Positions 2-53,806 of a stretch of 64,000 nt of DNA are shown in pieces. Position numbers and translations under genes: made by a program. This DNA is from an uncultured Solirubrobacterales bacterium (GTDB taxonomy: Bacteria; Actinomycetota; Thermoleophilia; Solirubrobacterales; 70-9), in contig CAVYEI010000002.1 of the NCBI GenBank assembly GCA_963767475.1, positions 456,851-520,850 of the forward strand, written 5' to 3'. The notes beneath the pieces are model-generated. The model did not search any database. It saw nothing but the letters and a program-made list of their open reading frames with translations, and was not told the origin of the DNA. How positions within the stretch are numbered: position 1 is the first letter of the stretch; each line of letters begins with the position of its first letter.

Positions 2-631
2 GCAGAACGCAACCGCACGCGCATCCTCGCCGCCGCCTCCGAGCTCTTCGCAGCCGAGGGAGTCGACGCCTCCCTAGAGGAGGTCGCCGCCCGCGCCGGG
101 GTCGGCGTCGGGACCGTCTACCGTCGCTTCGGAGACAGGGAGGGCCTGATCGACGCCCTCTTTGAGGATCAGCTCGCGGAGGTCGCTGTCCTCGCCCACC
201 GAGGCCTTGAGATGGACGATGCGTGGACCGGGCTCGAGTTCTTCCTGCGTGAATCCACTGCCCTCAGCGTGGCCGATCGGGGTCTGCGCCAGGCGGTGCT
301 CAACCCGGCACGCGGGAGCGAGCTTGCGGCACGCGCGCGCGACACCATTGCGCCGCTGGCGGCGCGGCTCTTTGAGCGCGCCCTTGATGACGGACGCCTG
401 CGCGGCGACCTCGGTGTCTTCGATATCCCGATGATGCAACTAATGCTCGGCGCCCTGGCTGATGTCACCGGCGAGGTCGATCCCGAGTTTTGGAAGCGTT
501 TTCTCGGGATCCTTTTGGATGGGATGCGCACCAGCCGGCAGGCGCCGACGCCGCTGCCGGGTGAGCCGCTGGACGCCGAGCGCTATGCAGCGGCAATGTC
601 GCAGGCCCGCCCGGCGACGCGGCTTCGGTAA
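2..631 (+). CDS. TetR/AcrR family transcriptional regulator (5' end cut by window edge)
   Basis: The frame of ORF 212..631 stays open to the window start. N-terminal HTH reads ILAAASELFAAEGVDASLEEVAARAGVGVGTVYRRFGDREGL, followed by a helical C-terminal domain. Confidence 0.8.
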   Translation, partial: AERNRTRILAAASELFAAEGVDASLEEVAARAGVGVGTVYRRFGDREGLIDALFEDQLAEVAVLAHRGLEMDDAWTGLEFFLRESTALSVADRGLRQAVLNPARGSELAARARDTIAPLAARLFERALDDGRLRGDLGVFDIPMMQLMLGALADVTGEVDPEFWKRFLGILLDGMRTSRQAPTPLPGEPLDAERYAAAMSQARPATRLR

Positions 632-1074: not shown

Positions 1075-1347
1075 TTGACCGACCTATTCCACGCACTCGC
1101 GGCGCCGGCTCGGCGAGCGATTCTGGACGAGCTTCACGATCGAGACGGCCAGACGCTCTTCGAGCTCTGCACCAGGCTGACGATGAAGCACCAGCTCGAG
1201 TTGTCGCGACAGGCGATCTCGCAGCACCTGGACGTCCTGGAAGCGGCCGGCCTGGTAAGCAGCAAACGCCAGGGCAGGTACAAGTTCCACTACCTCGATA
1301 CCGCACCGCTGAAAGCCATCGCGCAACGGTGGTCGATCGAGGCCTGA
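1075..1347 (+). CDS. ArsR/SmtB family winged-helix transcriptional regulator
   Basis: 90 aa. PARRAILDEL...LSRQAISQHLDVLEAAGLV is a typical ArsR HTH. TTG start, with a TATACT -10-like box just upstream. Confidence 0.8.
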   Translation: MTDLFHALAAPARRAILDELHDRDGQTLFELCTRLTMKHQLELSRQAISQHLDVLEAAGLVSSKRQGRYKFHYLDTAPLKAIAQRWSIEA

Positions 1348-1363: not shown

Positions 1364-1759
1364 ATGAGGATCACAGTTTCGAGTGTCCTGGTGGATGATC
1401 AGGAAAAGGCGCTCAGCTTCTACACCGAGACTCTCGGGTTCGTGAAGAAGGAGGATGTCCCCCTTGGCGAGGCCCGCTGGCTGACCGTGGTTTCCCCCGA
1501 GCAGCCAGACGGGACCGAGCTGCTGCTCGAGCCGGACGGCCACCCTGCCGCCAAGCCGTTCAAGGAGGCGCTGATCGACGACGGAATTCCCTTCACGTCG
1601 TTCGCCGTTGAGGACGTCAACGCTGAGTACGAGAGGTTGAGCGCGCTCGGAGTCGAGTTCACGCAGAAGCCGCTCGAGATGCCAACCGTCACCACCGCCG
1701 TGTTCGACGACACCTGCGGCAACCTGATCCAGATCGCGAGCCAGGGCGACGGGCGCTGA
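1364..1759 (+). CDS. VOC (glyoxalase/bleomycin-resistance/dioxygenase) family protein
   Basis: 131 aa, ALSFYTETLGF...GNLIQI pattern. SD GAGGAGG upstream. Starts 17 nt after the ArsR gene, so probably a two-gene operon. Confidence 0.75.
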   Translation: MRITVSSVLVDDQEKALSFYTETLGFVKKEDVPLGEARWLTVVSPEQPDGTELLLEPDGHPAAKPFKEALIDDGIPFTSFAVEDVNAEYERLSALGVEFTQKPLEMPTVTTAVFDDTCGNLIQIASQGDGR

Positions 1760-2340
1760 CGACCACCACGGGTGCCCGGCGGCCACGCCGATCGCTCAGC
1801 CGCTGGTTCCCTTCGGCGTGAGGGGCTTCCGCCCGGCCGGGATTTGCACCCACTAGACGCCGCGTCTTACTAGTCCTGCGGACCTCACGAATGCGGCGTC
1901 GTGGGCCTGTACGAGCCGGCACATAGGGCGGACGTCGCCGAATCCGATCCGCGTCGCCCGCCCTCTCGATCTGGGTGTCTCGCGCCCGGGGCAACGAGAG
2001 CCGAGCTTGAGCCTGGCGCGCGCCGGGATCGCAGGCTTGTCTCCCTCGCGATGGGAGGATCTCCGATCCCGTCGGAGCCGTTCACGGAGTAAGGGGAACG
2101 ACGAAAGGAACGTGATGAGCGTGCCTAGTCGACCTCGTCGCGGAGGCACTCATGCCGGGTTGCTCATCGTCGATTATCACAGCGTCATCGTCGACCGTCA
2201 GCGGCAGAGATGTGGACACTGCACGCGACTCCGACAGCGACCCCATTGGGTCAATGGCGTCGACGACAGTCACAGGCCACTCGGTATCCCGGAGCGTCAC
2301 GCAAGTCCATCGTCCGTGATCCCATAAGCAGCAACCGCGA

Positions 2341-2369
2341 TTGCCGGCCTGCCCAACCCGGCCTAGGTT
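2341..2369 (+). promoter_or_regulatory. Candidate promoter of peptide cassette 1 (TTGCCG-17 nt-TAGGTT)
   Basis: -35/-10-like hexamers with 17-nt spacing lie ~70 nt upstream of the small ORF. The element is retained in all three units, including the truncated one. Confidence 0.35.
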
Positions 2370-2437
2370 GGTCGCGATCGGATGTGGGTTCCGATCGGAA
2401 GTACCGCCTTCGGGCGTCGATTGAAAGGAAGTGGCCA

Positions 2438-2578
2438 ATGCGGTCCACCTCACTCGCTCAGCTCTCGGTTCGTTTCGCCCAGCGCAAGGGCCTGATCGTC
2501 GGGACCGGCGTCGCCCTCGCCGCCGCGGTCGCGCTGTTGCTCGGCGACTCGCACTCGCTCGGGATGACGCACAACTGA
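2438..2578 (+). CDS. Small hydrophobic peptide, 46 aa (MRSTSLAQLSVRFAQRKGLIVGTGVALAAAVALLLGDSHSLGMTHN)
   Basis: SD GAAAGGAAG lies 7 nt upstream of the ATG. Basic N-terminus, a ~20-aa hydrophobic helix and a 10-aa polar tail. A strong hairpin terminator follows. Too short to appear in the ORF track as a separate ORF. Confidence 0.6.
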   Translation: MRSTSLAQLSVRFAQRKGLIVGTGVALAAAVALLLGDSHSLGMTHN

Positions 2579-2652
2579 CGAACGTTTGTGGGGCCTCCCA
2601 CGGCGTTTGAGCCTCGAGCGAGCTCTGGTTTCTGGCAGCTCGCGACGGCTCA

Positions 2653-2687
2653 GGGGCGCGCCGCTTTGCGGCGCGCCCCTCGTCTTT
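2653..2687 (+). terminator. Intrinsic terminator-like hairpin (GGGGCGCGCCGC-TTT-GCGGCGCGCCCC + TCGTCTTT)
   Basis: Perfect 12-bp GC stem followed by a T-rich tail, 75 nt after the peptide stop codon. Confidence 0.65.
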
Positions 2688-3116
2688 AGGCCGGCGAACT
2701 AGAGCAAACGCGAAGAGCAAGCGCCGACGTCGCCCGCCCTCTCGATCTGGGTGTCTCGCGCCCGGGGCAACGAGAGCCGAGCTTGAGCCTGGCGCGCGCC
2801 GGGATCGCAGGCTTGTCTCCCTCGCGATGGGAGGATCTCCGATCCCGTCGGAGCCGTTCACGGAGTAAGGGGAACGACGAAAGGAACGTGATGAGCGTGC
2901 CTAGTCGACCTCGTCGCGGAGGCACTCATGCCGGGTTGCTCATCGTCGATTATCACAGCGTCATCGTCGACCGTCAGCGGCAGAGATGTGGACACTGCAC
3001 GCGACTCCGACAGCGACCCCATTGGGTCAATGGCGTCGACGACAGTCACAGGCCACTCGGTATCCCGGAGCGTCACGCAAGTCCATCGTCCGTGATCCCA
3101 TAAGCAGCAACCGCGA

Positions 3117-3145
3117 TTGCCGGCCTGCCCAACCCGGCCTAGGTT
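3117..3145 (+). promoter_or_regulatory. Candidate promoter of peptide cassette 2
   Basis: Identical copy of TTGCCG-17-TAGGTT. Confidence 0.35.
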
Positions 3146-3213
3146 GGTCGCGATCGGATGTGGGTTCCGATCGGAAGTACCGCCTTCGGGCGTCGATTGA
3201 AAGGAAGTGGCCA

Positions 3214-3354
3214 ATGCGGTCCACCTCACTCGCTCAGCTCTCGGTTCGTTTCGCCCAGCGCAAGGGCCTGATCGTCGGGACCGGCGTCGCCCTCGCCGCC
3301 GCGGTCGCGCTGTTGCTCGGCGACTCGCACTCGCTCGGGATGACGTTCAACTGA
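3214..3354 (+). CDS. Small hydrophobic peptide, 46 aa, variant ...GMTFN
   Basis: Identical to copy 1 except codon 45 (TTC instead of CAC). Same SD. Confidence 0.6.
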   Translation: MRSTSLAQLSVRFAQRKGLIVGTGVALAAAVALLLGDSHSLGMTFN

Positions 3355-3427
3355 CGAAGGTTGTGGGGCCTCCCACGGCGTTTGAGCCTCGAGCGAGCTC
3401 TGGTTTCTGGCAGCTCGCGATGGCTCA

Positions 3428-3461
3428 GGGGCGCGCCGCTTTGCGGCGCGCCCCTCGTCTT
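3428..3461 (+). terminator. Intrinsic terminator-like hairpin, copy 2
   Basis: Same 12-bp GC stem. Unit 3 begins immediately after it. Confidence 0.6.
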
Positions 3462-3552
3462 GTCAATGGCGTCGACGACAGTCACAGGCCACTCGGTATC
3501 CCGGAGCGTCACGCAAGTCCATCGTCCGTGATCCGATAAGCAGCAACCGCGA

Positions 3553-3581
3553 TTGCCGGCCTGCCCAACCCGGCCTAGGTT
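3553..3581 (+). promoter_or_regulatory. Candidate promoter of peptide cassette 3
   Basis: Identical copy of TTGCCG-17-TAGGTT. Confidence 0.35.
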
Positions 3582-3649
3582 GGTCGCGATCGGATGTGGG
3601 TTCCGATCGGAAGTACCGCCTTCGGGCGTCGATTGAAAGGAAGTGGCCA

Positions 3650-3790
3650 ATGCGGTCCACCTCACTCGCTCAGCTCTCGGTTCGTTTCGCCCAGCGCAAG
3701 GGCCTGATCGTCGGGACCGGCGTCGCCCTCGCCGCCGCGGTCGCGCTGTTGCTCGGCGACTCGCACTCGCTCGGGATGACGTACAACTGA
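3650..3790 (+). CDS. Small hydrophobic peptide, 46 aa, variant ...GMTYN
   Basis: Identical to copies 1 and 2 except codon 45 (TAC). Same SD. Confidence 0.6.
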   Translation: MRSTSLAQLSVRFAQRKGLIVGTGVALAAAVALLLGDSHSLGMTYN

Positions 3791-3845
3791 CGAACGTTTG
3801 TGGGCCTCGAGCGAGCTCTGGTTCCTGGCTGCTCGCGACGGCTCA

Positions 3846-3880
3846 GGGGCGCGCCGCTTTGCGGCGCGCCCCTCGTCTTT
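3846..3880 (+). terminator. Intrinsic terminator-like hairpin, copy 3
   Basis: Same 12-bp GC stem plus TCGTCTTT. The CPBP gene starts 52 nt downstream. Confidence 0.6.
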
Positions 3881-3931
3881 AGGCCGGCGAACTAGAGCGA
3901 ACGCCGAAGAGCAAACGCCGACGGAGTAGAC

Positions 3932-4753
3932 GTGGAGCGCAGCAAGAAGCAAAGCCATCCCGGTGGCATCTCGCCGGCGATCGCGATCGTGGCATTGGTC
4001 GTGCTCGCCGCGGCCATTTTCGGTGAAGAACTCATCTCACGCAGGCTCAGCCTCGGGATGAGCGAGACGTCGGAGAGGCTCGGCTGGTGGGACGTAGCGT
4101 TTGCCGTGTTCGAGCACGTCCTGATCCTGGCCGCGGCGCTGATCCCGATCCGCCTGGTCCTTGGTCGCTTGCGGGCATCAGATCTCGGATTGCGGCGTGT
4201 GCCGTGGCGCCCAGCCGTGGCAAGCGCTGTGGCCGTGTACGCCGCTTACGTGCTCGTCGCTGCGATTGCCTTTGCGATCCTCGGAGCACCACCCGAACGA
4301 GCCAGTGCCGACACCTTCGCCGACTCCGACTGGGCTGGGCCGCTGATCACCTACGCGCTGATCGCCTGTGTCGTCGCCCCGCCTACCGAGGAGCTCTTCT
4401 TTCGCGGTCTGATGTTCGGGGCCTTCCGCCGTCGCCTTCGCCCACTTCCTGCCGTGGTCTGCGGAGGCGTCCTCTTCGGCGTTGCCCACGGCCCGCCGCT
4501 TGCGGGAATGCTCGACCTCGCCCTGCTCGGCATCGCCCTTTGTTTCCTTTACGAGCGCACCGGATCGCTTCTGCCCTGCATCGGGGTCCACGCTGCCCAC
4601 AACGCGATCGCTTTCGGGGCAATCGTCTCGCTCCCATTCCCGGCGACCGCCTTGCTGACGACCGTCGGCGTCACACTCGCGACCGGGGTGAGCTGGGCGC
4701 TGTCGACCTCCGCTTCCGAGAGGGCAATTCGTCGGGTCCAGGTCGCCATGTGA
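3932..4753 (+). CDS. CPBP family (CAAX/Abi) intramembrane glutamic endopeptidase
   Basis: 273 aa and polytopic. All three family motifs are present: TEELFFRG (EExxxR), LFGVAHG (FxxxH) and HAAHNAIAF (HxxxN). GTG start with GGAG 6 nt upstream. Confidence 0.85.
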   Translation: MERSKKQSHPGGISPAIAIVALVVLAAAIFGEELISRRLSLGMSETSERLGWWDVAFAVFEHVLILAAALIPIRLVLGRLRASDLGLRRVPWRPAVASAVAVYAAYVLVAAIAFAILGAPPERASADTFADSDWAGPLITYALIACVVAPPTEELFFRGLMFGAFRRRLRPLPAVVCGGVLFGVAHGPPLAGMLDLALLGIALCFLYERTGSLLPCIGVHAAHNAIAFGAIVSLPFPATALLTTVGVTLATGVSWALSTSASERAIRRVQVAM

Positions 4754-4817: not shown

Positions 4818-5771
4818 TCAGGCGGCGATCACCTGGCCGGCGGTGTCGGCGAAGGCACGGATCCGGGGATCGCGGCTCGCGCGGCGCCAGACGAGCGCAG
4901 TCTCGACCGGCGCCATCCCGACCAACGGGACGAACGTGACCCCCTGCAAGGTCACGTAGTCCGCAACCGCACTTTCGGTGGGATGGACTAGCTCGCCACG
5001 CGCGACGTTCATGAATAGCTCGGCAAAGTTGCGCGGGGGCGGGATTGAGTTGTTCCGGCGGATCGGGCGTCCTTTCGGGGTCCGCGCCGGGATCAAGTCG
5101 CTGACCATGTCCTGCAGGTCGGTGTCGAAGCGAGCCACGGCATACGGGACCAGATCCTCAAGCGTCACCTCGTCGCGTCCGGCAAGCGGATGATCCTCGG
5201 CTACCGCGACGACCCGCCCGTTGCGACCGAGCACGGGTCCGACGGTGAGCTCCGGATGGCTGACTGGCAACCGGGCGGCCATCAAGTCAGCCTCTCCTCG
5301 TATGAGCGGGCCGAGCACGTCGGACCAATCGACGGTGACGCTGACATCCACCGGGCACTCAGGATGACGATCCTGGAAGATTTCGATGATCTCGGTCAAC
5401 CGAGGGCCACCTGCTGCCGGATAGAAGAGCCGCAGGCGTAGGAGACCGACGAGCTCCCGGTCATCACGGTCGGCGCGCTCGAGAACCGAAGCCAGCTGGC
5501 CGAGTGGCGAGCGCAGATCGGAAAGCAGCTCTGCCCCAGCCTGGCTGAGCTCGACGCGGCGGCTCGTCCGCTCGAAGAGAACCTCACCGAGCTTGACCTC
5601 GAGTTCCCGAACGGTCTGGCTTACCCGCGATTGAGTGACCAGAAGGCGCGCGGCGCTGCGACCGAAGTGCCGCTCCTCGGCGACCACAAGGAAGGTGCGT
5701 AGTTCGCGCAATTCAACCTGTTCCCACACCGGGCTCCCAGCGGGACGGCGTCGATGCGTCCCTCGATCCAT
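4818..5771 (-). CDS. LysR family transcriptional regulator
   Basis: 317 aa. N-terminal HTH LRTFLVVAEERHFGRSAARLLVTQSRVSQTVRELEVKLG, then a substrate-binding domain. Confidence 0.85.
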   Translation of the reverse strand: MDRGTHRRRPAGSPVWEQVELRELRTFLVVAEERHFGRSAARLLVTQSRVSQTVRELEVKLGEVLFERTSRRVELSQAGAELLSDLRSPLGQLASVLERADRDDRELVGLLRLRLFYPAAGGPRLTEIIEIFQDRHPECPVDVSVTVDWSDVLGPLIRGEADLMAARLPVSHPELTVGPVLGRNGRVVAVAEDHPLAGRDEVTLEDLVPYAVARFDTDLQDMVSDLIPARTPKGRPIRRNNSIPPPRNFAELFMNVARGELVHPTESAVADYVTLQGVTFVPLVGMAPVETALVWRRASRDPRIRAFADTAGQVIAA

Positions 5772-5919: not shown

Positions 5920-7017
5920 GTGATCGGGAGCGACGGGCGCCCCTCCGGCAACGGTGCGGGGCGGTTCCCTGCGCCTGCGCCTGGGCCATCGCCAGCGAGA
6001 TTCGCTGCCGTCGAGCTTGAAGATCTTGAGCGCACCCGGGTATCCGTCGCATTCTCTCCACTTGCGACGCTCGGTCTCCTCGTCTTCGATTGCGTGCAAG
6101 AGAGCCGGTTGTTGGGAGGGTCACCGCCCGTGATCCGCGCGATCCGCTCGCACCTACGTGCTCGCGATCTAGAGGTCCTTGGCACACTGGCGAGGCGGGG
6201 TAGCGCACCACCCTCGCTCGTCGGCCAGCGAGTCGCGACCCCGAACGGGTTCGCGCGGATCCTATGCGGCGACCCGGGCCCGGGCGTCAACAGCCTCGCG
6301 GACCAGCTCGAGGCGGTCGCCGAGATCGACCCCGACGAATTCCTGGCCTCGGTCGCCGGTTGTGTCGGCGATAGCCCTAGCGAGTCATGGGCAGCGTTGT
6401 ATTCAGACCCATCACGCTGGCTTCAGGCCTACGCAGGCGCCTTGTTGCGCGCGTGGCAAGCGGTCGGTCCGATCTGGGAGCGCGCGCGAGGCCTTATCGA
6501 GATGGAGGGCGAGCGGGTCGAGGCGGCGCTCGAGCGGGGCGCGGGCGCTGCGCTCGTCGTCGGGCTTCACGGCCGCGCCGCAGCGAGCGAGACGCACTGG
6601 CTCATCCCCACCGACCAGGATCCTCAGACCTACAGGCTGGCGCCGCATCTCGTCATCGCGCCGATGCTCACCGATCCGACGACGACAGCGATCTTCTCCG
6701 ACGGCACCGGGGCGCTGCCGACTCTGTTTTACGCGTGCGCGGGGGGTTCGCGGGCATACAACGGCGAGGCGCCGGCGCCGGCATCGCTCGAGGCCTTGGT
6801 TGGAACTCCGCGGGCTAGGATCCTCGCCGCGCTCGAGCGGCCGCTACGAGCCGGCGAGCTAGCGGCGATCCTGCAAACGGCCCCCGGCGGCGCCACCCAC
6901 CACCTGCGACTGCTAGAGGCGGCCGGACTCGTGATCCGGGTACGCGACGGCCGCTGGGTGGTAGTCGAGCGCACGCGGCGTGGGACCGCGCTGCTCGCGC
7001 TGTATGGGCTGGACTAG
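5920..7017 (+). CDS. ArsR-type winged-helix regulator with long N-terminal domain (DUF5937-like architecture), paralog 1
   Basis: C-terminus reads LEALVGTPRARILAALERPLRAGELAAILQTAPGGATHHLRLLEAAGLVIRVRDGRWVVVERT. Clearly paralogous to 12712..13746 and 19841..20848. The exact start is uncertain. Confidence 0.7.
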   Translation: MIGSDGRPSGNGAGRFPAPAPGPSPARFAAVELEDLERTRVSVAFSPLATLGLLVFDCVQESRLLGGSPPVIRAIRSHLRARDLEVLGTLARRGSAPPSLVGQRVATPNGFARILCGDPGPGVNSLADQLEAVAEIDPDEFLASVAGCVGDSPSESWAALYSDPSRWLQAYAGALLRAWQAVGPIWERARGLIEMEGERVEAALERGAGAALVVGLHGRAAASETHWLIPTDQDPQTYRLAPHLVIAPMLTDPTTTAIFSDGTGALPTLFYACAGGSRAYNGEAPAPASLEALVGTPRARILAALERPLRAGELAAILQTAPGGATHHLRLLEAAGLVIRVRDGRWVVVERTRRGTALLALYGLD

Positions 7018-52723: not shown

Positions 52724-53806
52724 CTATCGGCGAGCCACCTGTCGGTAGATCTCTTCGTAGCGGTCAGTCATCGCGCCGACACTGAAGCGCTCGGCGACGG
52801 CTCGGCACGCGTGCGGGTCGATCTCGCCGGCGCGCCGCGCAGCGTCCGCCATGCTCGGCACATCGTCGACGAGATAGCCGCTGACACCGGGAACGATGAT
52901 CTCGCGGGCGGCCCCTTCGTCGAAGGCGATGGCAGGTGTCCCCACGGACATGGCCTCGAGCATCACAAGGCCGAACGGCTCACACCAACGGATCGGCAGC
53001 ACCAGCGCTCGGGCCCGTGAGAACAGTCGCCATTTCTGCTCGCCGGCGATCTCGCCGACCCAGGAGATGCCGTCCGTTCCCAGGTGCGGGCGGACCATGC
53101 CCTCGAAATAGTCGCCGCCGTAGCTGGGGACCGGACCTGCGAGCACGAGCGGCAGGCCCGACAGCCGTGCAACTTCGATCGCGCGATGCGGACCCTTGTC
53201 TCGAGTCATCCGACCGACGAAGAGCAAATAGTCCTCCTTCTCCTCAGCCACAGGCCAAACGTCGAGACCGTTCCACACCACAGACGCGTCGAGCTCGAGG
53301 TTGGGCGGCTCCGCTCGACGACATCGCCCGGCCCCGCAGTCCAGCTGGCTCTGGCTGATGGCGACCAATCGCGCCTTGTGTCCGTGCTGTGCGTAGAACC
53401 CGGCGGGGTCGCCGTTGAGATGCCAGTGCATCGTGTGAACCATCGGCACGGCGAGGCGATCGGCCATCGCCAACGCGACGTAACCGCTGTGGTCGTGAAC
53501 CACGTCGAATGGCGGATCGGAAGCCTCGATCGCTGCGAACGCCCGCGCCACGTGATCAGCCTCATAAATCGAACGATTGCCACCATTCGGGTAGGCGTGG
53601 TGGAGGAGCGGCCGGACTACGGCCGACGACCTCGAGCCGGGTGGTGCGAAGAGCTCGACCGAGTGTCCGCGGCGTACAAGCTCGTCGGTCAATGGGAGGA
53701 TGACCGCCTGGATGCCACCCTGAGCGGACGGAACGGGACGGGTGTGAGGGGCGAGAAGGGCGATACGAAGTAGCTCACTCGGAGCGCGCCGAATGTCGTG
53801 ATTCAT
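52724..53806 (-). CDS. Glycosyltransferase family 4 protein (copy B)
   Basis: SD AGGAAGGA. CEPFGLVMLEAMSVGTPAIAF EX7E region. Paralog of 50362..51492. Confidence 0.8.
   Translation of the reverse strand: MNHDIRRAPSELLRIALLAPHTRPVPSAQGGIQAVILPLTDELVRRGHSVELFAPPGSRSSAVVRPLLHHAYPNGGNRSIYEADHVARAFAAIEASDPPFDVVHDHSGYVALAMADRLAVPMVHTMHWHLNGDPAGFYAQHGHKARLVAISQSQLDCGAGRCRRAEPPNLELDASVVWNGLDVWPVAEEKEDYLLFVGRMTRDKGPHRAIEVARLSGLPLVLAGPVPSYGGDYFEGMVRPHLGTDGISWVGEIAGEQKWRLFSRARALVLPIRWCEPFGLVMLEAMSVGTPAIAFDEGAAREIIVPGVSGYLVDDVPSMADAARRAGEIDPHACRAVAERFSVGAMTDRYEEIYRQVARR

Follow-up and report, generated by a model that had tools for sequence, protein, structure and literature searches.

The locus considered here raises the question of why a gene for an intramembrane protease should be preceded by several copies of one very short open reading frame (ORF). 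It lies in a 64,000-nucleotide (nt) stretch of DNA from an uncultured Solirubrobacterales bacterium (contig CAVYEI010000002.1, positions 456,851 to 520,850 of the forward strand), which is referred to as the window. Near the start of the window, three tandem cassettes each carry a 46-codon ORF, and the last of them is followed directly by the gene for a CPBP (CAAX/Abi) protease. A first-pass annotation, made from the letters of the window, had described a triplicated promoter, 46-residue peptide and terminator cassette at this place, and this description was borne out by a repeat search and a three-way alignment. The two genes appear to form a real and undescribed system, which is most likely a peptide precursor together with its processing enzyme.

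A small membrane peptide gene linked to a CPBP gene

The public annotation of the 1.86 Mb source contig calls all three 46-codon ORFs without naming them. The GC contents at the three codon positions of the ORF (GC1/GC2/GC3 = 0.66/0.51/0.89) are like those of the neighbouring genes, and the other ORFs in the repeat are flat in this respect. A word-indexed protein search with the single peptide returned its own three alleles only, a full HMMER scan of 1.84 billion cluster representatives returned three related clusters, and a profile search of a 5.8-billion-cluster collection returned 15 related clusters besides its own. Database clusters and ORFs read from fetched loci together give a family of 19 distinct peptides of 40–55 residues, which is rare (about 19 distinct sequences among about 15 billion predicted proteins). 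This homologue search had been proposed in the first-pass annotation, and it found the peptide ORF intact in every locus and broken in none. The pairwise Nei-Gojobori ratios of nonsynonymous to synonymous substitution (dN/dS) across ten loci are mostly 0.2–0.6, with dS reaching about 2. Judged by this conservation, the small ORF is a genuine gene. The peptide matches no Pfam, NCBIfam or PADLOC model, its RNA matches nothing in Rfam, and no description of a peptide plus CPBP system was found in the literature, all of which is consistent with the earlier remark that no such system was known. The peptide profile gave no tblastn-confirmed match in metagenomes. A degenerate DNA pattern of the peptide tail had no match among viral contigs and a single match in metagenomes, on a low-GC contig (L012), which was judged to be due to chance.

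The family peptides share one architecture. The N-terminus carries positive charges and a recurring RFA(E/Q)(R/H)KG motif, the middle is a helix of 19–20 Ala, Val, Ile, Leu and Gly residues, and the C-terminus, when the sequences are aligned from the right, is the near-invariant L-L-[LF]-G-D-[SAPGT]-[HQ]-S-[IL]-G-M-T-[HYF]-[ND]-stop. Residues G36, D37, G42 and M43 are invariant in all 18 sequences without an insertion, and position 45 is H, Y or F across the family. Positive charge is confined to the N-terminal 17 residues, and the helix and tail are uniformly hydrophobic, with a charge that is neutral to acidic. The positive-inside rule predicts a peptide with its N-terminus inside and its C-terminus outside, exposing a tail of about ten residues. 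A metal-binding tail (D, H, M, H) was considered and dropped, since the His residues are replaced by Q, Y or F in family members. Lasso-peptide, mycofactocin and other readings as a ribosomally synthesized and post-translationally modified peptide were also dropped, there being no modification enzymes nearby, no Cys, and no Asp or Glu at core positions 7–9.

The protein encoded by the following gene matches PF02517 with 83.5 bits (cut-off 22.4) and E = 1.3e-23. The first-pass annotation had credited it with all three catalytic motifs, and these are indeed present: EExxxR as E153-E154-x3-R158, FxxxH as F182-x3-H186 and HxxxN as H220-x3-N224, each kept in all 20 homologues examined. By its motifs, therefore, the protease is catalytically intact. 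Its profile recovers the Rce1 structure 4cad by sequence (E = 0.005), and the AlphaFold2 model (predicted local distance difference test score 90.5) has SpdC (6u0o_A) and Rce1 (4cad) as its top Foldseek matches (probability 1.00, template modelling score of about 0.5). Scores against the named CPBP subfamilies (MroQ, the myxosortases MrtX/MrtC, MrtS/MrtJ and PEP-CTERM CAAX) all fall far under the NCBIfam cut-offs, for example 26.8 bits against 270 for MroQ (NF046050) and 36.9 against 130 for MrtS, and the peptide has no Cys-containing C-terminal sorting motif. A CPBP scan of genome contigs gave a sole useful relative, L002; L003–L006 were distant proteobacterial CPBP proteins and were left out.

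The structural match introduces a first alternative to processing, in which the peptide would be a non-cleaved small membrane partner whose helix docks on the CPBP protein and modulates or localises it, or is itself modulated or localised. In the top match (PDB 6u0o), SpdC is complexed with SagB, and the CPBP fold engages the single-pass transmembrane helix of its partner. The peptide helix contains small-xxx-small motifs suited to packing, and the two genes strictly co-occur. SpdC, however, is devoid of the catalytic residues, and its partner SagB is a full-size enzyme; the protease of the window keeps every one of these residues, and the other component is a peptide of 46 residues. The peptide gene has its own strong promoter, a hairpin between it and the CPBP gene, and two to three copies, which imply a stoichiometric excess that would be unusual in a subunit, and a conserved tail with one hypervariable position is more like a recognition or product sequence. 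A partner role of this kind is considered improbable.

Whether the pair recurs was examined in the neighbourhoods fetched for CPBP homologues and for peptide homologues (designated here by locus number). Immediately 3′ of the peptide gene, L002, L007, L008, L009, L014/L015, L017, L018 and L019 carry the CPBP gene, or its recognisable N-terminal part where the contig ends. The P0043/P0007 contig, known from its gene table only, has the same order, so that the order peptide then CPBP is found in the window and nine further loci. Three more peptide/CPBP pairs (P0037/P0010, P0039/P0005 and P0044/P0014) are probably co-located, judging by the equal lengths of their contigs. Recurrence of the synteny in related Actinobacteria had been suggested as a check on the pairing, and in the loci compared the link is real. 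L002, a Solirubrobacterales metagenome-assembled genome (MAG), encodes a CPBP protein 48% identical to that of the window and a distant peptide of 40 residues ending in ...AITHDV. Copy number has varied independently outside the window: there is one peptide copy in L007, and L009 has two diverged tandem peptide genes (...GMTYD and ...GMMYD; dS 0.27 between them). A 47-residue gene stands immediately 5′ of the peptide gene on the P0043 contig. The contig from JGI sample 3300067032 that carries peptide P0030 has another gene of about 47 residues at its end, and it holds the sole observed peptide without an adjacent CPBP gene. The module occurs in a narrow set of soil actinobacteria with high GC content, among which the closest loci are those of Solirubrobacterales-type MAGs.

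A conserved third gene, whether receptor, exporter or regulator, was sought around the loci and none was found, the flanking genes being unrelated from one locus to the next. The regulators near the pair (ArsR/HTH_20, LysR, TetR, MerR and LuxR) differ by locus, and BLASTP shows no orthology among them, which leaves the module without an assignable conserved regulator; because both flanking genes and regulators differ in this way, the conserved unit is exactly two genes. Regulators of the ArsR/HTH_20 and LysR types stand near the module in three loci (window 1075–1347, 4818–5771 and 5920–7017; L008:1699–3599; L009:4684–5340), and a 70-residue LysR helix-turn-helix fragment lies just 5′ of the L008 peptide gene.

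This gene order, with one to three tandem peptide genes and then an Abi/CPBP gene in one transcription unit, matches a second alternative, namely that the peptides are membrane-active toxins or bacteriocins, possibly a cocktail of several alleles, and that the CPBP protein provides Abi-type immunity like PlnI, PlnLR and SkkI of lactic acid bacteria and does not mature them. Allele sequence and copy number are variable, as this would have it, and the locus looks accessory, with deletion or rearrangement derivatives in near-identical strains (L010/L011 versus L014). The catalytic motifs would be needed here too, as Kjos et al. reportedly found in 2010 that Abi immunity requires them. Against immunity, the peptide has no double-glycine leader, and no ABC exporter or C39 peptidase occurs within ±4 kb in L007, L008 and L009, among the genes flanking the cassettes of the window, or in the smaller flanks of L014 and L018. 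The helix and tail are not cationic and amphipathic, unlike class II or leaderless bacteriocins, and the part conserved best is the short polar tail, not an amphipathic helix. An immunity function is accordingly regarded as unlikely, though less so than the partner role.

Several loci carry altered forms of the module. In L010 (at approximately 1690–1800) and L011, the CGTGATC box, the promoter ATTGCCG-17-TAGGTT and the beginning of the leader run directly into the central part of the CPBP ORF. Compared with L014:3904–4421, the 3′ half of the CPBP gene in these two loci is 98.8% identical, and the peptide gene, the 3′ untranslated region (UTR) and the first 123 or so codons of the CPBP gene have been deleted; evidently the module can be dispensed with and undergoes decay in nature. 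At L014:3100–3300, and also in L015 and L016, the canonical promoter and leader are absent and the first 17 or so peptide codons are replaced by unrelated sequence (MTATVRSAARATAVKSGG...), with the peptide helix, tail, 3′UTR hairpins and full CPBP gene retained. The first transmembrane segment of the L009 CPBP protein (L009:3904–4003) is in another frame than the rest, the annotated start at 4001 being downstream of it, which points either to a pseudogene with a frameshift or to an error in the long reads. L018 comes from sequencing run ERR11593888, as does contig L001, and carries a second, lower-GC and distant module composed of the peptide MATRFAQVYASISGREGYIAAAAALVVTAAAVLLFGDAQSIGMTHN and a 284-residue CPBP protein, with L008 as the closest relative; at least two lineages with the module therefore co-occur in that sample.

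Table 1. Features of the peptide array and the CPBP gene, in window coordinates
Feature	Position	Strand	Details
Repeat unit 1	1952-2727	+	full 776-bp unit; repeat search, three-way alignment
5′ part of repeat unit 1	1952-2314 (~360 nt)	+	without coding signal and without counterpart in other loci; GC1/GC2/GC3 of all its ORFs flat
Repeat unit 2	2728-3461	+	without the last ~45-nt tail after the hairpin; repeat search, three-way alignment
Repeat unit 3	3462 to ~3925	+	5′-truncated, begins ~90 nt 5′ of −35; original 3′ flank into CPBP gene kept
Upstream box CGTGATC	2315-2321, 3091-3097, 3527-3533	+	~19 nt 5′ of −35; conserved in L007, L009a/b, L013, L019, L010
Promoter TTGCCG-17-TAGGTT	2341-2369, 3117-3145, 3553-3581	+	only TTGNNN-16..18-TANNNT match on + strand of each cassette
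Leader, ~62 nt	2376-2437, 3152-3213, 3588-3649	+	RNAalifold consensus, single-sequence fold
Leader elements, copy 1	hairpin 2376-2396; second hairpin 2404-2417; Shine-Dalgarno 2423-2431; start-codon hairpin 2431-2448	+	
Peptide gene, allele H	2438-2578	+	46 codons: MRSTSLAQLSVRFAQRKGLIVGTGVALAAAVALLLGDSHSLGMTHN; GC3 0.89
Peptide gene, allele F (...GMTFN)	3214-3354	+	
Peptide gene, allele Y (...GMTYN)	3650-3790	+	
Structured 3′UTR, copy 1	2587-2680 (hairpin A 2587-2602, B 2609-2651, C 2652-2680)	+	
Structured 3′UTR, copies 2 and 3	3362-3455; 3803-3873	+	copy 3 without hairpin A
13-bp GC hairpin C (terminator/attenuator)	2652-2680, 3427-3455, 3845-3873	+	
CPBP (Rce1-like/Abi) glutamic intramembrane protease, 273 residues	3932-4753	+	PF02517; GTG start; Shine-Dalgarno-like GGAG 3923-3926

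Promoter, leader and 3′ untranslated region

The regulatory elements around the peptide gene are conserved in position and structure across the loci, which backs the promoter, leader and terminator assignments of the first-pass annotation. On the sense strand, TTGNNN-(16–18)-TANNNT has a single match in nine cassettes, the distant lower-GC L018 included, and the match ends 64–72 nt before the start codon. The CGTGATC box upstream of it, found in most loci, is a candidate regulator-binding site. The promoter signature CGTGATC...GATTGS has one extra match in the window, at 53551, which falls within a glycosyltransferase gene of the opposite strand and was treated as chance.

The leader is somewhat shorter than first annotated, with about 62 rather than about 70 nt. 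A 5′ hairpin at the predicted +1 position has the arms GATCGGA..TCCGATC, and in L013 these read GACCGGA..TCCGGTC, a compensatory change; the RNAalifold consensus of the leader contains one compensatory pair and G-U changes in all. The sequence of the second leader hairpin varies by locus and its support is modest (n=6 sequences). The Shine-Dalgarno (SD) sequence in each unit is GAAAGGAAG. Around the start codon there is a further hairpin, GTGG-N-CCAC (2431–2448, 3207–3224 and 3643–3660), and its pairing recurs in L007, L009a/b and L019; the CCAC arm codes for the conserved Ser-Thr at residues 3–4. Initiation of translation could be held back by this hairpin, which may also account in part for the codon conservation of these two residues.

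Downstream of the peptide gene, the 3′UTR folds into the three hairpins A, B and C, all of which are kept in the window, L013, L014, L017 and L019. In an alignment of these five sequences, 94.7% of cells are paired and seven of the 34 pairs have changes on both sides; one of 500 column shuffles reaches the observed value, and slid controls pair at 35–54%. Hairpin C (GGGGCGCGCC...GGCGCGCCCC) occurs in all loci, L002 included, at approximately 3–60 nt from the CPBP start. In the window, this distance is 58 nt and not the 52 nt given earlier. Neither this interval nor the corresponding interval in other loci contains a promoter motif, and the protease would therefore be transcribed by read-through. 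Hairpin C is probably a partial terminator, or else a processing or stabilising element, which sets a high ratio of peptide to protease. No part of the window has an Rfam match at the gathering score, and permissive E-values on 1750–4000 gave spurious weak hits only.

A hairpin between the small ORF and the CPBP gene is also what would be seen if the ORF were a cis-regulatory leader peptide, its translation or stalling controlling the hairpin and hence CPBP expression, as in TnaC, SecM and MifM. Conservation does continue up to the stop codon, and the hairpin of L009 begins only about 16 nt past the stop. Most loci, however, have 75–100 nt and two other hairpins between the stop codon and hairpin C. 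The helix would still be in the ribosome tunnel at termination, so that force-sensing would be impossible, and the upstream duplicated cassettes cannot act on the CPBP gene in cis. The conservation also spans the whole peptide, including its N-terminus and helix. A role as leader peptide is hardly credible on these grounds.

The strong structure of the mRNA, with its 5′, 3′ and start-codon hairpins, bears as well on the proposal in the first-pass annotation of a type I toxin-like array, in which hydrophobic toxin ORFs would be controlled by antisense or overlapping small RNAs (sRNAs). As in ldr, ibs and sho of E. coli, the cassettes are tandemly amplified, each has its own promoter, and the ORF is small (46 residues, under 60), hydrophobic and transmembrane. 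The antisense strand, scanned from −120 to +260 in 12 cassettes, does not contain the TTGNNN-16..18-TANNNT motif, although a motif scan cannot exclude atypical promoters, and the sense promoter is at a fixed place. In difference to the E. coli loci, no antisense partner was detected, and the pairing with a protease and the polar tail are conserved. Close linkage to a protease with an intact catalytic site, seen in at least nine other loci, is no property of type I systems, Rfam has no match to the locus, and a conserved polar C-terminal tail is atypical of pore-forming type I toxins. The proposal has not stood up to these comparisons and is now very improbable.

The tandem array and divergence of its copies

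The array extends head-to-tail from 1952 to 3925 and consists of three copies in register, whose starts lie 776 and 436 nt apart, as identified by repeat search and three-way alignment. Tandem Repeats Finder did not detect the array because its period exceeds the 500-nt limit of the program. The third unit had been described as 5′-truncated to exactly the minimal cassette; the truncation was confirmed, and the unit is not exactly minimal, since about 80 nt 5′ of the −35 element, including the CGTGATC box, are kept. The array is not an assembly artefact, as the three copies have distinct variants and an independent short-read contig (L001) agrees exactly with the window. L001 begins at 3869, within the last hairpin, which is the point where the repeat would break a short-read assembly.

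Variation between the copies is distributed unevenly. Units 1 and 2 show no difference over 618 nt, up to codon 44, and the three copies together have one variable site in the 320 nt 5′ of codon 45. The stretch of about 111 nt that begins at codon 45 and ends with hairpin C has six substitutions and two indels, and the contrast between the two sides is significant (Fisher p = 0.0015). A 19-nt deletion in copy 3 has removed hairpin A of its 3′UTR, and beyond hairpin C the tails of units 1 and 3 differ. In the protein, the copies differ at residue 45 only, where the codons CAC, TTC and TAC give H, F and Y, the same three residues that occur at this position across the family; the earlier description of the array as multi-allelic is thus upheld.

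The identity of the 5′ 300 nt cannot be explained by purifying selection, as this sequence is not conserved in other loci. The simplest reading, from the pattern of differences, suggests that the duplication is older, that gene conversion or unequal crossing-over later made its 5′ parts uniform, and that its 3′ parts stayed distinct. The peptide cassette would have been amplified to three copies through two tandem duplication events, with the 5′ parts of the cassettes then held identical, probably by gene conversion, and H, F and Y retained at position 45. Concerted evolution is thereby suggested, with variation being kept at the variable residue of the peptide family. The differences at codon 45 would fit selection that keeps the alleles unlike, which is only suggestive.

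The 5′ part of the repeat was considered separately. About 570 nt separate a VOC/glyoxalase gene from the first cassette promoter (1760–2330, with a copy at 2728–3106), and this sequence has no homologue in other loci. Its 70-residue and 123-residue ORFs match nothing significant in Pfam or NCBIfam, and because of this and the flat GC1/GC2/GC3 profile of its ORFs, 1760–2330 is treated as non-coding. A sigma-70-like site on the minus strand, CTGACG-17-GATAAT with an extended TG, runs from 2201 to 2173 and is repeated from 2977 to 2949. An unannotated sRNA or a gene remnant within 1760–2330 is possible.

Processing of the peptide and comparison with known systems

The gene itself, its synteny, the conserved regulatory and RNA elements, the integrity of the protease and the pattern of copy differences are established by the analysis. 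From these we infer a scheme for the topology of the peptide, the read-through into the CPBP gene, the cleavage and release, and the biological role that the product would have. The reading preferred here, tentatively and at somewhat less than an even chance, is of a membrane pro-peptide that is expressed at a high level and serves the CPBP protease as its dedicated substrate; the protease would release from it a small product with the conserved tail. The first gene would encode a single-pass membrane pro-peptide of 40–55 residues composed of a basic N-terminal segment (...RFA(E/Q)RKG), a helix and a short tail facing outward. The strong promoter of its own, the 5′-terminal stem-loop, the good SD and the multi-hairpin 3′UTR lead to the expectation that this peptide is made in large excess, and the second gene would be expressed solely through read-through of the last hairpin. 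After the peptide enters the membrane, the CPBP protease would cut it at or within the helix, and the released product carrying the conserved tail would be a diffusible signal or another bioactive peptide.

Two positions are conceivable for the cut. A cut at the junction between RKG and the helix may leave a fragment of about 29 residues composed of helix and tail. The small residues 38 and 40 would also fit the −3/−1 site of a signal peptidase releasing [LI]GMT[HYF][ND].

Several points weigh against processing with release of the tail. By a positive-inside reading of the sequence, the catalytic residues E153/E154 and H220/N224 of the CPBP protein would be nearer the cytoplasmic face, so that a cut at the N-terminal end of the helix would be favoured over release of the tail alone. 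The gene order is equally that of Abi-type immunity operons. The argument for selection at codon 45 consists of two nucleotide differences only. On the 2058-bp JGI contig with P0030, it is an SDR gene and not a CPBP gene that follows the peptide. Lastly, the neighbourhood of the pair has no conserved receptor, transporter or modification enzyme, and a signalling circuit is not demonstrated.

Processing by the CPBP protease may also be put in a more specific form, which is doubtful. The single adjacent CPBP protein would then be the only maturation enzyme, turning a 46-residue precursor that resembles a signal anchor into a secreted short peptide with the ...GMT[H/Y/F][N/D] tail, and residue 45 would be a 'pherotype' determinant kept diverse by selection against gene conversion, with one cell producing three signals or antimicrobial variants.

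Peptide genes beside Abi/CPBP genes are already known from Firmicutes, and the maturation of a peptide by a CPBP protease has a precedent in MroQ. What is new is the peptide family, its occurrence in a high-GC soil actinobacterial lineage, the strict two-gene architecture with conserved promoter and RNA structures, and the allele array within one genome. To our knowledge, very few bacterial CPBP/Abi proteases have a known substrate, the clearest case being MroQ and AgrD, whose genes are unlinked. A candidate substrate encoded directly 5′ of the protease in a recurring compact module represents a directly testable enzyme-substrate pair. We know of no characterised peptide signalling or bacteriocin system in the poorly studied Thermoleophilia-type actinobacteria of soil. 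The pattern within the genome is a small and clean case of concerted evolution with retained allelic diversity, and the conserved promoter, 5′ stem-loop and three-hairpin 3′UTR may serve as parts for high expression in these organisms.

Among known systems, the class II bacteriocin operons plnEFI, plnJKLR and skkABI have a similar layout, in which a small peptide gene, or several in tandem, precede an Abi/CPBP gene of the same operon, and the catalytic motifs of its product are important. Their peptides, however, are cationic, carry double-glycine leaders and are served by dedicated ABC exporters. Nothing of this applies here, and these loci are from Firmicutes whereas the present one is from a deep actinobacterial lineage.

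The agr system of Staphylococcus aureus likewise combines an intact CPBP/Abi protease, MroQ, with a ribosomal peptide of about 46 residues, AgrD, and a short extracellular signal. The N-terminal leader of AgrD, which is associated with the membrane, is cleaved off directly by MroQ, and a short variable linker sets the specificity (PMC9388083). The mroQ gene is not adjacent to agrD, whereas here the peptide and CPBP genes adjoin. AgrD also needs AgrB and forms a thiolactone, and its helix is amphipathic; the present peptide has no Cys, there is no AgrB or AgrCA adjacent, and the helix is a full hydrophobic transmembrane helix. SilX of Streptococcus anginosus, a CAAX protease encoded in a peptide-signalling or bacteriocin locus, is implicated in making the SilCR signal and not in immunity, and some CAAX proteases are reported to act in immunity (PMC9298176). 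SilCR differs in having a leader of the double-glycine type, with the exporter SilDE and a two-component system beside it, and none of these is found here.

The enterococcal and streptococcal pheromones processed by the site-2 protease (S2P) Eep (cCF10 and SHP) and those of the Phr/PapR type are made from precursors of 20–50 residues with a basic N-terminus and a hydrophobic helix, the last few C-terminal residues being the signal once proteolysis within or outside the membrane has taken place. The peptide described here likewise has a basic N-terminus, a hydrophobic helix and a short C-terminal end. Those precursors are cut by S2P or secreted proteases and have an adjacent receptor (Rgg or RNPP), whereas here the protease is a CPBP protein and there is no conserved neighbour. 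No adjacent cognate receptor or regulator of the kind present in the Agr, RNPP/Phr and Rgg/SHP systems is conserved across the loci. The precursors of these systems are short, with an N-terminal part that targets the membrane and a brief C-terminal active region differing from allele to allele, and in its architecture and its variable residues 44–46 the peptide may be of this kind.

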